This document shows positions 18,001 through 27,000 of a stretch of 64,000 nt of DNA, piece after piece (the stretch's first letter is position 1; the number at the start of each line of letters is the position of its first letter). Source of the stretch: Dehalococcoidia bacterium. Lineage in GTDB: Bacteria; Chloroflexota; Dehalococcoidia; Lucifugimonadales; UBA3495. The stretch covers positions 32,001-96,000 of the forward strand of contig JASLXV010000025.1 of assembly GCA_030740155.1 (NCBI GenBank), written 5' to 3'. Made by a program: the position numbers.

Positions 18001-21000
18001 CTGGCGCGCCGGAACCGGGTGAACCTGCTTTTCGAGGCGAGCGTCGGTGGTGGGATACCCATCATCGGCTGCTTGATGAACGAACTGGTGGCCAACGACA
18101 TCCACTCAGTCCGTGGCATCATCAACGGCACCACCAACTACATCCTCACTCGCATGGCCCACCATGGCACCGATTTCAGCCAAGCCCTCAAAGAAGCCCA
18201 GGAACGCGGCTACGCCGAAGCGGACCCGACCAACGATGTCGAAGGCATCGACGCGGTCTACAAGCTGGCGATTCTGGCGTCCCTGGCCTTTCACCACCCG
18301 TTCAACCCCGAGGACGTTTACCGGCAGGGCATATCGAGCCTGGAATCCCAGGATTTCCGCTACGCCCAGGAACTGGGGTACGCCATCAAGTCGCTGGCCA
18401 TCGCGACGTTGGAAGACGGCGTCATCCAGGCGAGGGTTTACCCGGCGCTGGTCCCCGTGGACAACATGCTCGCCAAGGTCGACGGAGTGTACAACGCGGT
18501 GGAAGTGGAAGGCAGCCTCTGCGGAAAAGTCCTTTTCCATGGCATGGGCGCGGGCCGGGAGCCGACGACGAGCGCGGTGGTGGGGGACGTGATCGAGGTT
18601 GCCCGGAGGCTGACCCTGCAGCCGGGTTCGCCCGCTGACGGGTCTCCGGGGACCGGGGAGGAAGCTTCGCTTCGCACGCCGGGCCCCACCGAGGATGGTG
18701 CGGCGCGGACTGTCGAGTCGATAGACGGCTTGATGCTCAAGTATTATCTCAGATTAAAGGTTGCCGACCAGCCCGGAGTGTTGGCCCAAATTGCCCACAT
18801 ACTGGGAGACGGAGAGATCAGCATGGCCTCCGTCATTCAGAAGGATACCAATCTTGCGGAGCAGACGGCTGAGATCGTTATCATCACTCATCCGGCCAGG
18901 GAAGCCTCGGTCCAGGCGTCCCTTCGGTCGATGGCGAACCTGGAAGTCGTTCGAGGGGTGAAAAGCCTTCTCCGGATCGAAGAATAACCAGCACGCCGTT
19001 CCCGATTGGCCGGGTCCATCCGCCCGGAATGGGGAAGAGGCGGCGGTGGGAACCTACCTGACGGGAAGCATATGGGTGTCGGGGTCCTACGGAACTACAG
19101 AGACCTCCTTCCGGTGACGGAGACCACCCCAATGATCACATTGGGGGAGGGGGATACTCCGCTGGTCAAGTCCAACCGGCTCGGGAGGGAGTTGGGCTGC
19201 TCCGACCTGTACTTCAAGCTGGAAGGGTGCAATCCCACTGGGTCTTTCAAAGATCGGGGCATGGTTGTCGCCATCGCCAAGGCGCTGGAAGAGGGGAGCA
19301 AGGCGGTAATGTGTGCTTCCACCGGGAACACCAGCGCGTCCGCCGCCGCCTATGCCGCGTATTGCGACCTTCCCGCGCTGGTGCTGATTCCCAAGGGAGA
19401 GGTGGCCATGGGCAAACTGGCCCAGGCCATGGCCTATGGCGCTCGGATCATCATGATCAGCGGGAACTTTGACGTGGCGCTGAAGCTGGTCCAGGCTTTT
19501 ACCAGCAAGCACCCGATGACCCTGGTCAACTCGGTCAACCCCCACCGGATCGAAGGACAGAAGACGGCCGCCTTCGAGGTGGCCGACACTTTGGGTGAAG
19601 CCCCGGATTACCTGTTTATCCCGGTGGGCAACGCCGGCAACATCACCGCCTACTGGAAGGGCTTCAAGGAGTATTACAAGCTCGGCCGGACCCGCCGGCT
19701 GCCTCGTATGATGGGCTTTCAGGCAGAAGGTGCGGCTCCCATCGTGCGCGGGGCGCCGGTGGCCAACCCGCAGACCATCGCGTCGGCCATCCGCATCGGC
19801 AACCCGGCCAGTTGGAACGGCGCTTTGGATGCCAGGGACGGCTCAGGGGGCGTGATCGACATGGTCAGCGACGACGAAATTCTGGATGCCTACCGGCTCC
19901 TTGCCTCCCGCGAGGGTGTCTTTTGCGAGCCGGCATCCGCGGCCTCCTTCGCCGGGCTGGTGAAAATGCACCGGAAGGGTCTGGACCTGGCGGGAAAGAC
20001 AGTAGTATGTATCTTCACCGGGACGGGCCTTAAAGACCCGGACCTGGCGGTCAGCAGCGTGGCCGCCCGCACCACCGAGGTGGAACCGACTATGGAAGCC
20101 GTGGAAGCGGTGGCGCTGGCCGCGGCTCAGTGATTCGAAGGGGTCTCGATATTCAAAGGCAGCGAATTGAGGAAGCAGTAACCACCCTGTTGGAGGCCAT
20201 CGGCGAGGACACGTCCCGAGAAGGATTGCGTCAGACCCCGCAACGGGTCGCGCGGATGTACGAGGACCTGTTTTCCGGAATCGGGTTGGACCCGTGCGCC
20301 GCGATCGACACGGTCTTCGAGGCCGACAGCCAGGACCCGGTGCTCCTGGGCAACATTCCCTTCTATTCGGTCTGTGAGCACCACCTGCTGCCCTTCTTCG
20401 GGCTGGCCCACCTGGCCTACATTCCCAATGGGAAGATCGCCGGCTTGAGCAAGTTGGCCCGGGCCCTGGAAGTAGCCTCGCACCGGCCCCAGGTCCAAGA
20501 GCGGCTGACCGGCCAGGTAGCCGATGCGATTCTCTCCGCCCTCAGCCCCGACGGGGTCGTGGTGGAAGTGGAAGCGGAACACCTCTGCATGGCGATGCGC
20601 GGAGTGCGAAAACCGGGCAGCCGGGTAGTTACCTCCGCCGTCCGAGGCCGGTTCGAGAACGGCGCTCTTGGCCGAGACGGACTTCTTGCCCTGTTGCGAA
20701 GGAGGTAACCAGTGGCCAGGACCCCCCTGACGTCTTTTGAGGACATCCGGGAAGAGTGGGAGGGCCTTCTATCCGGCTCACCGGTGAACACCCTGTTCTT
20801 GACTCCTCAATGGCAGGAGGTGTGGTGGGACACCTTTGCCAACGGCAAGAGAATGGCCGGGTTTTACGTCCGGACGGCGGATGGCGTGGCGGCCATTGCT
20901 TCGCTAGCTCGTTGCGGGGAGACCCTCTCATTCGTGGGCAACCAGGACACCTTCGATTACAACGACTTCCTGGTAAGCCCGGGTTATGAGGCCCAGTTTT

Positions 21001-24000: not shown

Positions 24001-27000
24001 TACCCTGTGGGGGGGTATTAACCATCAGGCTCCGGTACTCTATCTGGTCCACCGTATTGGGACAGAACCCCCAACTGCCGTCAAAAGCAGCGTTTTGAGC
24101 CTCGGTCAACACGGCGGCATCCCCCGGCTGAAAGGTACGGACGGTGAATCCGTCGGGGAGCGCTGCGTTGGGCAGAGCGTCCCCACTCCAGACCAGGTCC
24201 CAATAGGTGCGGGCCAGGGAGAACCCTTCGGCTCTCAGAAGGTCAGATTGAGGCGATGGGTCCGGCAGGCACGCGTGAATCACCTGGGCTCCAAGTTCGA
24301 TGGCCCGGCCCACGGCGCGGTGCACCAGCTCCTGGTGATGGATGCCGCCAACCAGTTCGGGGGCCACCTCCAGTTCCAGAACAGCCCGGCCGATGGGCGT
24401 TTCCGGAACTACCTGGCAGAAGCCACCCACCCGGTCGCGGTCCTCGATGAGGAAGCAATTCTCCGTGGGGAACAGCCAGGGTTGGCCCAGCTTCTGTTCA
24501 AAGGTCTGCCGGCCCAGGGCGCGGCCCCGCTCACCCCACGTACTACCCTGCTCAACAAGATCCAACAGCGCCGACAAGCGGTCGCCGGAGAAGTTACTCA
24601 CTCGCAATATAGAATCCTTATAATATGACGGTAATCGATAGTAAATAGGTGAATACTCGACGAACACATCCGTTAAACACCATGATAATGGTGTCGAACA
24701 ATGCATTCCGGCGGCGGGAAGGAGCCCTCAGTACCCTCGCCCGATTGTAGCAGAGTATATGGCGGCCCACAAGACAGGAAACCAGCTTCAGAACCGCCGC
24801 CGCCAGGCACGGGTGGGCCACCGGGCCGGTACTCCCGGAGACCTGGAAAACCCGTCTGAGACTCAGATGCCCTCGAAGAACCGGCGCGGGTTCTCCACCA
24901 TGAGTTGCTGGATGTCCGCATCGGAGGCCCCCAACTCTTTCAGCCTCGGGAGCACCTTCCTGGGGATGAAATTGTAACCATCGGGATTGGCCCGGCGACG
25001 CTCCTCTTGGGCCTGCGCGCCGTTCCGTGCTTTGGGCACCGAGTAATCGTGGGATAACATGATCCGGTGGCAAAAACCGGCGTCGATCAGCTTCTTCGCG
25101 GTTTCGGTTCGTTGCTCCCATTTGGGTGTGCCGGGGACCCGTCCGCCGGGGTAGCGGTCCAGGCCCAACCAGACACCCTTTCCCAGAAGGCCCAGCAGGT
25201 AATCCAGGTCGGTGTCATCGTTGGAGTGGCCTATGTAGACCCGGGTCAAGTCCACGCCTTCTTCTTCCAAGATCCGGACCTGCTGCTCCCCGACCCGCTC
25301 CGGGGACCAGGTGTGGGTGGAGATCGGCGTACCCGTGCGCAGATGTGCCCGGGCCGCCGCCCGCAAGACCACCTCTTGAAGGGGCGTAATCCCTCCCTGG
25401 TCGCTGGCCACCTTGATGACGCTGGCCTTGATCCCGGTCTCCTCGATGCCCTGCTCAATCTCCTTGATGAAGAGTGGGGCAATGACATCCGGTGAGACGT
25501 CACCGAAGGGCCGGGGGACTGCCAGGTGGATGCCGGTTGCGGCAACGATCCGGACTCCGCTCTTGCGGGAGACCTCCTGCATCGCTCCGATATCCCGTCC
25601 CAGGTCAAAGGTGCTCACGTCCACCATGGTGCGGAGACCCTCATTGTAGGCCTCCTTCAAGGCGGCCGCCGACTCTTCGATGATACCTGAGCAGTCGATG
25701 AATTCCGGGTAGGTATGGCGAAGGCCGGCGGCATTGGTGCCCACGTGCTCGTGGATCAAGGTAAAGCCCAGGTCTTCTGATTGCACCGGTCCCAGGACGG
25801 TATTCACGGTTGTCAAAATCGTCGCCTCCTCCGATTCTATTCGACTCGAGTTGGCGGCGGCCTCAAGATTCCCCCGAAAACCGCCTGGAGCAAACGGTCC
25901 CCCGGCCAGACCGCATCACGAACGGCGCGGGAACCTACAGCGTCTGGAAAGCCCGGTGGCCGGGGCGCCTGGTTGGGCCAAGAACATTTTCTCCTCCGTG
26001 GCCCGCCGGCAACTTCCGGATCAGAGCGGCCGGGCTATATTATGGCGGCCTGGCCTCGGAGGGCGGTCTGCAAGACCTCCACATCCTCACTTACAAGCCA
26101 AAGAATACACCTCGATCAGGCCTCGGAGTCAATACCGGAGTGTAACGGCGGTCACAGACATTAACCCTCATCTGAAATAGAATAGTGACAGAGATGGCAA
26201 AAACTACACGGGGAGGGGTCATGGCACTGGCCCCATACCTGGGAAACAATCCGGCAGGACGATGAGATGGCATCGGTGAAACGTATCCGCATACTCCTTG
26301 GAACCGGGCTGATCGCGGGATTGCTGCTAATAGCCGGCTGCGGGCTGGCGAGTAGCCCGTCGAGCGAATCAACCCCGGCGGCGGCCCGTAGGGCCCCCAC
26401 TGCCACCGCTGTTCCGGTGGCGAAGCCCACGGTGGCTCCTACCGAGCCAGCGCCGGCCATCACTCCGGCGACGACACCAGAGCCCAATCCGGCGCCGGCG
26501 TCTGGCCATGGGGTAACACCTCCCGCGACTCCTCTGTTAGTCGCTCCCCCGTCGAAACCGGCACCGTCGAAACCGGCACCGGCGCCCGCTTCGAAACCGA
26601 CGCCGGTACCGACGCCGGCGCCTACGCCGAAGCCTACGCCCATTCCGGAGCCGGAGCCCGCGCTGTCCTCCGGCATGGTTGGCCTGTTCCTGGCGATCAA
26701 CGGCGGTTCCAGCTCCAACCTGCTAAGGACCGTCTCGACCGACTCGAACAGCGGCGAGATGACCGGCAGCAAGTACATCACCATCGAGAAGAGCGCCAAA
26801 GCGGTGGTCCTCTACGTTCCTGAAAGGGGAGAAGCTACGCTGATCGACTCCTACACCTCGCCCAGCTACGCCCCCCATACCAAGAGGCCGCACACCTTCG
26901 ATGACCGCCTCTTCGTGGGCACCAAGTACAGCACTTCACTGAACTACGCGGAGTATGACCCTCAAACACTGCTGCCGGTGAGCAACGCGATGGCCAAGCA

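Follow-up and report, generated by a model that had tools for sequence, protein, structure and literature searches.

A gene cluster from SAR202, an abundant deep-ocean group, probably encodes the central steps of a thiol pathway of the mycothiol type. The cysteine would be added by a non-homologous enzyme, a GNAT of the Fem-type fold that would act as a Cys-tRNA-dependent ligase making Cys-GlcN-inositol. This reading builds on the genes observed, their linkage, the fold of the GNAT and its exchange across the phylum with an MshC-like gene, from which we infer every substrate, the use of tRNA, the equivalence of Lys307 and the final product. The cluster lies in the window, the 64,000-nucleotide stretch of DNA that was analysed, and all four of its reading frames named in the survey's finding were recovered in place (Table 1). 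A housekeeping run of hom, thrC and folE, with folE as its last gene, leads into the cluster. RNA-library contigs (four runs, two studies), from which neither strand nor transcript can be read, covered parts of all four genes at a depth of 2-6, and a promoter and terminator scan stayed at chance level.

Table 1 Features of the cluster and its surroundings, in window positions
Feature	Position	Strand	Remarks
folE	20130..20708	+	ends 3 bp before GNAT start; context, outside the pathway
GNAT, Fem-fold tandem (annotated CelD/BcsL-type)	20712..21689	+	325 aa; Acetyltransf_6 103.6 bits, FemAB_like 25.1
MshA-type GT4 glycosyltransferase	21686..22915	+	409 aa; 4-bp overlap with GNAT stop; MshA model 364.3 bits
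DUF502 membrane protein	23049..23735	+	91 bits; in 35/121 loci
Tandem GNAT acetyltransferase (MshD-like), convergent	23687..24607	-	MshD model 72 bits, cut-off 163.1; in 31/121 loci
PIG-L deacetylase, candidate GlcNAc de-N-acetylase	31820..32599	+	BshB1 model 115 bits; 7 kb downstream of cluster

Linkage of these genes was followed across 121 GNAT loci, consisting of the window, 40 loci chosen to cover a range of families and the best 80 of 588, with L050 and L112 being the same place. The GT4 lay within 300 bp downstream of the GNAT in 98 of them and a PIG-L was present in 65; together with the counts for DUF502 and the MshD-like gene in Table 1, this is far above chance. The upstream hom-thrC-folE block is missing from many of these loci, and DUF502 is a frequent neighbour in SAR202 that is dispensable elsewhere. 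A compact GNAT-GT4-PIG-L triad occurs at locus L035, whose PIG-L is 42% identical to that of the window, and the window's genome holds two further members of this PIG-L family elsewhere. Small-genome lineages of the class retain the triad. A contig labelled Nitrospiraceae (L079) also carries GNAT, MshA and PIG-L, and since a true GNAT orthologue was found in only one of 201 genomes of that phylum (384 bits), this points to transfer or misbinning; 19 other genomes there gave 161-219 bits, and a close MshA neighbour was found at none of those 19 weaker loci. A plasmid search with the GNAT returned four weak matches.

The predicted structure of the GNAT (pLDDT 97.5) matched FemX (6snr) with a Z of 22.3 and an rmsd of 3.6 over 292 residues, followed by FemA (Z 22.2), Sbb17 (Z 20.1) and MprF (Z 18.3), so that the earlier assignment of a Fem-type fold from FemX and Sbb17 was reproduced (Z 20-22). 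CoA-dependent tandem GNATs scored below FemX, at Z 15-17, and the acetyl-CoA motif was absent from 176 of 177 rows of the GNAT family, being present in one. Sequence searches of the PDB gave no match and of the ESM Atlas only the GNAT's own family; distant relatives occur in polysaccharide loci (L071). Invariant among 136 sequences are D82, R167, E169, R172, K212, N265, G302, E304, Y306 and K307. Two of these, R167 and R172, lie in a basic helix (residues 164-180) in which K165, K173 and R175 are kept in at least 90% of sequences, and residues 160-180 hold a mean of 8 Lys plus Arg. This positively charged helix at the C-terminal domain is a putative tRNA-binding feature, as in FemABX-type transferases, and K307 would be the counterpart of FemX Lys305, by position only. 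The fold, taken together with the displacement described below, suggests Cys-tRNA as the donor. In the part of PMC12945691 available to us, Orf11, which has the same fold, transfers glycine from Gly-tRNA to an amino sugar, and the amino acid used by the GNAT-fold transferases that have been characterised is Ser, Leu, Gly or Ala; that part names a Cys-tRNA donor only for the PEARL TglB and no GNAT-fold enzyme using Cys-tRNA.

The GT4 scored 364.3 bits on the MshA model compared to 144.5 for the next family and 116 for BshA, which bears out the earlier score, including its place below the cut-off of 462.5. It also proved correct that the protein matches Tll1590 as well as MshA (251.8 bits for Tll1590 and 245.1 for Corynebacterium glutamicum MshA in the PDB). 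The positions matching C. glutamicum MshA H9, Y110, T134, R154, R231, K236, E316 and E324, most of the active site, are retained, as are the MshA positions that bind the terminal phosphate of inositol-1-phosphate, and one stretch reads GGMN as in MshA, in contrast to GGQN in Tll1590. The GT4 departs from MshA at two positions, where D20 is replaced by Lys and K78 by Leu, changes that belong to this SAR202 subclade.

MshC had been described as missing, and indeed none of 301 Chloroflexota genomes has a match over the cut-off, but in 104 of the 301 an MshC-like paralogue scores 363-410 bits, so that the apparent absence of MshC from Chloroflexota is an artefact of the cut-off. More such genes lie just below 363 bits, and the group as a whole ranges from 333 to 410 bits compared to the TIGR03447 cut-off of 485. 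In all five genomes checked, the gene occurs as an extra CysRS copy in addition to the housekeeping CysRS. The encoded proteins have 384-420 aa, with 107-145 residues after KMSKS as opposed to 187-199 in CysRS, do without the anticodon domain, retain Cys and His at the alignment columns of the CysRS site and form one clade (support 100/100). Housekeeping CysRS as the source of the high MshC-model scores was thus ruled out by copy number, tail length and tree. The group has PYDxTHLGH and ERG stretches in common with Mycobacterium smegmatis MshC, with ERG in 45 of 67 short rows and 0 of 39 long ones; this motif ('ERGGDP') is an observation from alignment, and a search for 'ERGGDP' found no paper. 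A profile of the group alone did not separate it cleanly from CysRS. In the PDB, the MshC-like profile gave Escherichia coli CysRS 455 bits and M. smegmatis MshC a lower 435. We call the genes 'MshC-like' because they score under the TIGR03447 cut-off and did not prove closer to MshC than to CysRS. A CysRS without an anticodon domain can have another role, as does CysRS* (PMC9437257). Genomes G171 and G179 have an mshC-like gene, a PIG-L and mshA in this order on one strand, and their PIG-L shares 40-41% identity with the one in the GNAT triad. In the window's genome (94% complete) the CysRS family is limited to a full CysRS and a CysRS-GT2 fusion, neither of which falls within the MshC-like clade; the fusion was rejected as a hidden MshC on this ground and because it turned up in an MshC-like genome (G104) as well but in none of four GNAT-only genomes.

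Among MshA-positive Chloroflexota (202 of the 301 sampled; MshA match line 1e-70, GNAT presence line E 1e-30), the GNAT and the MshC-like CysRS paralogue are nearly mutually exclusive and have the same operon partners: 68 genomes have the GNAT only, 120 the MshC-like gene only (6 of them assigned by score alone), 10 both and 4 neither, or 67, 117, 10 and 4 when four unpublished genomes are left aside. Only four genomes with neither gene fits one required step, and of these four, three are fragmented or less than 90% complete and one has a partial GNAT. Four further MshC-like genomes (G141, G197, G213 and G293) gave weaker full-length GNAT matches, E 1e-20 to 1e-28, below the presence line, and ten f27 genomes have the MshC-like gene without an MshA match at 1e-70. 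In the window's order 60 of 61 genomes have the GNAT, and a search for an MshC-like copy found none in the same 61, each of which gave at most one CysRS-family match at E<=1e-72, the 20 best being full-length CysRS. MshA proteins of the two genome types are intermixed in one tree with at least 10 state changes, and in family f40 both types fall within a 100% clade. Independent pairs on starred branches numbered five, four in the same direction and none in the opposite (sign test, p = 0.125), independent switches being few because kin are not independent. The presence of MshC-like genes in Chloroflexota strengthens the idea of replacement, and the near-exclusive distribution, along with the common operon partners, is the best support for the original proposal of a Fem-type ligase in place of MshC.

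Several other genes said to occur in the window's genome were recovered: a full-length Ino1 (512 bits; actinobacterial cut-off 638), which adjoins another GT4; two MshB-like genes, one of 199.6 bits, under the cut-off of 224 and unlinked to the cluster, and one of 145.5 bits; a mycothione-reductase-like (Mtr-like) gene of 454 bits, compared to 241 for the next paralogue; and the SCO1664 gene, over its cut-off. Two MDMPI-family genes also exceed their cut-off, and neither BshC nor GshB was found in this genome. Ino1 was detected in four of five other GNAT genomes, one match being partial, and not in G069. Across 80 genomes of the phylum, SCO1664 occurs in 48, including MshA-negative f49 and f57, and was set aside as not discriminating; Mtr-like genes occur in only 3 of the 80, one of them MshA-negative, and Mtr was likewise dropped as a phylum marker. 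MshD exceeds its cut-off in 3 of 80, all MshC-type. The PIG-L linked to the cluster had been taken for an MshB type and instead gives BshB1-like scores (91-122 bits). For the MshD-like neighbour, the weak score in Table 1 stood and the MshD motif test failed: the glutamate of the G-E-I-Y stretch in the three over-cut-off MshD proteins, presumably catalytic in MshD, is present in 0 of 30 aligned neighbours. Its acetyl-CoA motif is intact and its best PDB match is 3tt2 (E 5e-11; MshD E 3e-4), making this convergent acetyltransferase a candidate N-capping enzyme and no true MshD. This motif failure, the BshB1-like PIG-L and the MshC-like genes of the phylum are why we write 'mycothiol-like' and not 'mycothiol'; the former holds, and the evidence stops short of mycothiol proper. 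Counting against canonical mycothiol are the acetyltransferase lacking the MshD glutamate and the rarity of MshD and Mtr in the phylum.

In the proposed pathway, Ino1 would supply inositol-1-phosphate, onto which the MshA-type GT4 would transfer GlcNAc from UDP-GlcNAc, and a phosphatase and the PIG-L deacetylase would then yield GlcN-inositol. Cys-tRNA(Cys), charged by the housekeeping CysRS, would be bound by the GNAT through helix 164-180, and its cysteine passed to the unsubstituted amino group of the glucosamine to give Cys-GlcN-inositol; Lys307 would play the part that Lys305 has in FemX. This product may be capped in SAR202 by the convergent acetyltransferase; in the many other lineages lacking the capping gene it is perhaps uncapped or capped in another way. 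Among the observations that count against this pathway are the scores of all Msh homologues of the cluster below curated cut-offs, the higher score of E. coli CysRS than of MshC on the MshC-like profile, the other role that a CysRS without anticodon domain can have, the small number of independent switches, the ten genomes with both ligase genes and the four more with weaker GNAT matches, the ten f27 genomes lacking an MshA match, the rarity of Mtr and MshD, the missing Ino1 of G069, the changed D20 and K78 of the GT4 and the absence of a Cys-tRNA-using GNAT from the consulted part of PMC12945691.

A tRNA-dependent GNAT might instead add Gly, Ala or Ser to GlcN-inositol, giving a non-thiol conjugate, with the mutual exclusion between it and MshC reflecting competition for one precursor or lineage history. 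The amino acids used by the characterised enzymes in the available part of PMC12945691 would fit this, as would the genomes with both genes, the rarity of Mtr and MshD and the triad in small-genome lineages; we nevertheless consider it unlikely, given the scarcity of MshA genomes with neither gene and the presence in the window's genome of MDMPI, MshB/Mca-like and Mtr-like genes without BshC and GshB. It is still less probable that cysteine is ligated from a donor other than tRNA, such as an aminoacyl carrier protein, an acyl-CoA or Cys-AMP from a CysRS. The general lack of an acetyl-CoA motif and the conserved basic helix speak against such a donor despite the family's annotation as acetyltransferase, no carrier protein or adenylating enzyme appears among recurrent neighbours of at least 100 aa, and the second, GT2-fused CysRS that could be cited for it has the distribution given above.

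Lipid aminoacylation, in which the GT4 and PIG-L make glucosaminyl-phosphatidylinositol and the GNAT modifies it as MprF does phosphatidylglycerol, draws on the match to MprF/aaPGS domains (Z 17-18), the membrane protein DUF502 and the other GT4 beside Ino1, and ranks lower again. The GNAT is a single protein of two domains, neither of them in the membrane, the positions that bind the terminal phosphate of inositol-1-phosphate in MshA are retained in the GT4, DUF502 is found in a minority of loci, and the exchange partner of the GNAT resembles a soluble small-molecule ligase. Hardly credible, finally, is a sucrose-phosphate-synthase-like GT4 of the Tll1590 type serving an osmolyte beside an unrelated polysaccharide-modifying GNAT: the slightly higher Tll1590 score and the distant relatives in polysaccharide loci agree with it, but the GGMN stretch is that of MshA, the deacetylase partner argues for a GlcNAc donor, and the exchange with MshC would be left without explanation.

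Among known systems, Cys-GlcN-inositol synthesis by the cluster would most resemble mycothiol biosynthesis of Actinomycetota (Ino1, MshA, MshA2, MshB, MshC, MshD; Mtr) in its MshA-type GT4, PIG-L and Ino1 and in the cysteine-ligation slot, which the MshC-like CysRS paralogue fills in other Chloroflexota; it differs in a ligase that is not homologous to the MshC-like group (hhalign probability 0.5%), a BshB1-like linked deacetylase, no true MshD and a sporadic Mtr. With FemABX-type transferases (FemX, FemA, and Orf11, Sbb17 and Sba18 on streptothrisamine) the GNAT has in common the tandem fold, the basic helix and a C-terminal lysine of putatively equivalent position, and with Orf11 the proposed amide formation on an amino sugar; it differs in its 12-18% identity, housekeeping locus and proposed Cys-tRNA donor. 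Bacillithiol synthesis (BshA, BshB, BshC) likewise combines a GT4, a PIG-L of the type scored best here and a third enzyme, not related to MshC, that adds the cysteine, but BshC was found in 0 of 301 Chloroflexota genomes at E<=1e-20 and the GT4 favours MshA over BshA. MprF and the aminoacyl-phosphatidylglycerol synthases have the GNAT fold and a probable tRNA donor, whereas the window's GNAT has no membrane or flippase domain and its partners suggest a soluble sugar.

In the part of a gene survey available to us (PMC6282198), complete mshA-D sets occur only in Actinobacteria and mshD in just 27% of mshC genomes, and the consulted part of PMC6336425 lists a thiol detected in Chloroflexus aurantiacus as unidentified. 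A description of a tRNA-dependent mycothiol-like route was not found in the literature, subscription journals being largely outside the scope of the search. We judge it an evenly balanced proposition that some two thirds of Chloroflexota produce a cysteinyl-glucosaminyl-inositol thiol, for the most part lacking an N-acetyl cap, with repeated switches between two unrelated ligases, an ATP-dependent MshC-like one and a Cys-tRNA-using Fem-fold one. To our knowledge no earlier tRNA-dependent route to a low-molecular-weight thiol and no Cys-tRNA-using GNAT is known, and the cluster, if read correctly, would provide the first of each. It leads to a specific prediction of what the thiol of the phylum looks like and of a new enzyme that makes it, would name a thiol for SAR202, small-genome Dehalococcoidia and Chloroflexus, and proposes a function for a large 'CelD/BcsL acetyltransferase' subfamily. 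Redox metabolism in these organisms would then be tied to the pool of charged tRNA.

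In the window, a Fem-fold tandem GNAT, proposed to take the place of MshC as a Cys-tRNA:GlcN-inositol ligase, is followed by an MshA-type glycosyltransferase (GT4) in a cluster that is a real, conserved system. The GT4 scored 364.3 bits on the curated MshA model (cut-off 462.5; next family, 144.5) and the convergent acetyltransferase 72 bits on the MshD model (cut-off 163.1), the same values as reported for these genes by the survey's finding (364 and 72 bits). In the PDB, the GT4 matched Tll1590 at 251.8 bits and C. glutamicum MshA at 245.1 bits, and SAR202-named relatives of the GNAT were 66-67% identical to it. 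A phosphotriesterase-family gene (229 bits) lies directly upstream of the acetyltransferase.

Coordinates of the cluster and nearby genes in the window
Feature	Coordinates	Strand	Remarks
GNAT	20712-21689	+	325 aa
GT4	21686-22915	+	409 aa; 4 bp shared with the GNAT
DUF502	23049-23735	+	
Tandem GNAT acetyltransferase	23687-24607	-	convergent; 306 aa
Phosphotriesterase-family gene	24863-25816	-	same strand as the acetyltransferase
PIG-L gene	31820-32599		7 kb downstream of the cluster

The neighborhoods mapped came from 121 loci: the window, 40 picked for family spread from 116 GNAT matches, and the best 80 of at least 588 further matches. Two of these loci, L050 and L112, are the same place. A GT4 lies within 300 bp after the GNAT in 98 loci; PIG-L occurs in 65, while 35 have DUF502 and 31 have the MshD-like gene. 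GNAT-GT4-PIG-L is the conserved core, found in compact form in four same-class, single-contig genomes of 1.4-1.7 Mb (L035, L036, L038, L043), while in several Anaerolineae-titled loci, and also in families f25 and f47, the GNAT and mshA occupy separate places in the genome. Other genes recur nearby. At L139:10284-10586 (-) and eight other loci, mostly Anaerolineae-titled, a conserved ORF that lacks a Pfam match and encodes about 100 aa is convergent with mshA, often before purH. Downstream of PIG-L in SAR202-type loci (L084, L093, L096, L097, L100, L135, L137, L145) are DUF885 and a small gene that we take to be EthD-like. A PHP/CpsB-type phosphatase (18 loci) and a HAD-like gene (11 loci) are candidates for the missing MshA2 step. 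One Nitrospiraceae-labelled contig (L079/L340) carries GNAT-MshA-PIG-L; the 201 genomes of that phylum gave no other true orthologue, and this one reflects either transfer or misbinning.

Across 95 GT4 copies next to the GNAT and 21 others, the positions that match C. glutamicum MshA Y110, T134, R154, R231, K236, E316, and E324 (numbered from the PDB alignment) do not vary, and the one that matches H9 hardly does; the motif GGMN is shared with MshA (GGQN in Tll1590). In the SAR202 subclade of the window's GT4 (other examples are L073, L083, L116, and L135), the D20 position is Lys and K78 is mostly Leu, Pro, or Met, changes that, from the alignment, may represent a compensated swap or an altered acceptor.

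GNAT, MshA, MshC, and BshC were searched for in 301 Chloroflexota genomes, with up to five candidates scored per genome for the MshC and MshA models. The GNAT matched in 116 genomes (88 at E<=1e-30) and the MshA model in 202 at E<=1e-70, while BshC was found in none of the 301. The survey's finding had counted MshC only above the curated cut-off, which no protein of the 301 genomes exceeds, but 104 of these genomes carry matches to the MshC model at E<=1e-108 (363-410 bits). These MshC-like proteins form one clade (support 100/100), are 384-420 aa long with 107-145 residues past KMSKS compared to 187-199 in CysRS, and have PYDxTHLGH and ERG stretches in common with M. smegmatis MshC in the alignment, although with an MshC-like profile E. 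coli CysRS scored above MshC. PMC9437257 describes a truncated CysRS that serves a different function. That the MshC-like genes are the housekeeping CysRS was ruled out, since they are an extra copy in all five genomes checked; four GNAT-only genomes hold one CysRS each. The GNAT family is not related to the MshC-like family. In ten f27 genomes, an MshC-like gene occurs without an MshA match at 1e-70 (for example, at L172 and L188 in G009).

Among the 202 MshA genomes, the first threshold gave 70 with the GNAT only, 84 with the MshC-like gene only, eight with both, and 40 with neither. When those 40 were searched again, 36 had matches of 333-364 bits; all 30 that were fetched are MshC-like by tail and tree, and the other six were assigned by score alone. 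Of the 80 GNAT-only genomes, 74 were searched a second time (five were covered separately and the unpublished G181 was omitted), which added two genomes with an MshC-like copy among the 30 best loci. The final split was 68 GNAT only, 120 MshC-like only, 10 both, and 4 neither, or 67, 117, 10, and 4 with four unpublished genomes removed. Two of the four "neither" genomes (G013 and G077) are less than 90% complete, G140 has a partial GNAT, and G037, in 400 contigs, had no match at the second-search threshold. Weak full-length GNAT matches below the E<=1e-30 line occur in four MshC-like genomes; the one match of these that was examined (L071) lies among polysaccharide glycosyltransferases and is without the RHE motif. 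In the window's order, 60 of 61 genomes carry the GNAT, and none of the 61 has more than one CysRS-family match at E<=1e-72; the 20 best of these matches are full-length. G171 and G179, without the GNAT, have mshC-like, PIG-L, and mshA in that order on a single strand, and their PIG-L shares 40-41% identity with the one in the GNAT triad. Pairs of mshA and PIG-L were also seen in G088, G115, and G293. In the MshA tree, proteins from the two genome types are interleaved, and the state changes at least 10 times. The starred branches of this tree gave five independent pairs, four one way and none opposite (p = 0.125), and because such pairs are few, the pattern, strong in counts, is not statistically established against shared descent.

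Damaged ligase copies were seen in three places: a frameshifted GNAT (L301:7352-8270) in a genome whose MshC-like gene is intact, a frameshifted MshC-like gene (L302:5655-6777) in one whose GNAT is intact, and the truncated GNAT of G140 (L303:6754-7311). These reflect decay of a redundant copy or sequencing errors. The window's genome also encodes a second CysRS (L002:5140-7350, contig C38), a 736-aa spirochete-type protein (PRK14536, 433 bits) with a C-terminal GT2-like domain and a relative in a distant Chloroflexota genome (L180). This fusion was rejected as a hidden ligase, as it falls outside the MshC-like clade, a relative is in an MshC-like genome, and none was found in four GNAT-only genomes.

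In the mycothiol pathway, MshC joins cysteine to GlcN-inositol with ATP (PMC9736012). GlcN-inositol would be provided by MshA, a phosphatase, and PIG-L, and the GNAT most likely moves cysteine from Cys-tRNA(Cys) onto it, which would form the same bond; tRNA-Cys is present in the window's genome. The AlphaFold2 model of the GNAT, built from 136 sequences (pLDDT 97.5), is closest to FemX (Z 22.3), FemA (22.2), Sbb17 with streptothrisamine (20.1), and MprF domains (17-18), compared to 15-17 for CoA-dependent tandem GNATs and 15.4 for MshD. Lipid aminoacylation by the GNAT is very unlikely. According to a 2026 review (PMC12945691), FemX-class enzymes are double-GNAT proteins that bind tRNA through a positively charged helix. 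GNAT residues 160-180 contain a mean of 8 Lys+Arg; an acetyl-CoA motif is present in one of 177 GNAT-family rows. A cysteine donor other than tRNA is quite unlikely. Invariant in the alignment of 136 sequences are D82, R167, E169, R172, K212, N265, G302, E304, Y306, and K307, the last of which, judged by position, would correspond to FemX Lys305, the sole reactive residue of FemX (PMC12945691). The donors named in that review for the double-GNAT class are Ser, Leu, Gly, and Ala, with Cys-tRNA named once, for the PEARL TglB. It is unlikely, if less so than the other alternatives, that the GNAT adds an amino acid other than cysteine. That the cluster is an osmolyte pathway is hardly credible. 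In sixteen MshA-negative f49 genomes (e.g. G081 C16:4608-5186), matches are mostly to the GNAT C-terminal half inside 386-1253-aa frames; these proteins are a different Fem-type family, possibly fused.

Several observations weigh against canonical mycothiol. The convergent acetyltransferase, which the survey's finding had called MshD-like, matches 3tt2 (E 5e-11) more closely than it does MshD (E 3e-4), and the glutamate of three over-cut-off MshD proteins is present in none of 30 aligned acetyltransferases of this type. Of 80 genomes, three have an MshD above its cut-off, each of them MshC-type, and Mtr-like genes were found in 3 of 80, one MshA-negative; the window's genome has an Mtr-like gene (454 bits). 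Cluster-linked PIG-L proteins score highest on BshB1, and the distribution of SCO1664 does not follow MshA. SCO1664 adjoins DUF3090 in the window's genome (L157:1144-2448, contig C107), a pair that neighbors mshC in actinomycetes, and lies 4 kb from the MshC-like gene in G293 and 6.5 kb from the GNAT in G087.

In its main text, PMC6282198 reports mshA-D sets only in Actinobacteria, with mshD in 27% of mshC genomes, and leaves Chloroflexi unnamed, though its Data Set S1 may list them. A thiol in Chloroflexus aurantiacus is listed as unidentified in PMC6336425, a mycothiol maleylpyruvate isomerase is noted for a SAR202 genome (PMC6123686), and Fem ligases and MshC are set out as separate solutions in PMC2922099. 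Our literature search found no published report of a tRNA-type ligase route in place of MshC. That the SAR202 end product is mycothiol itself is possible but doubtful. Given the results for MshC and MshD, the cluster is placed outside the canonical mycothiol pathway, though it would work like mycothiol synthesis.
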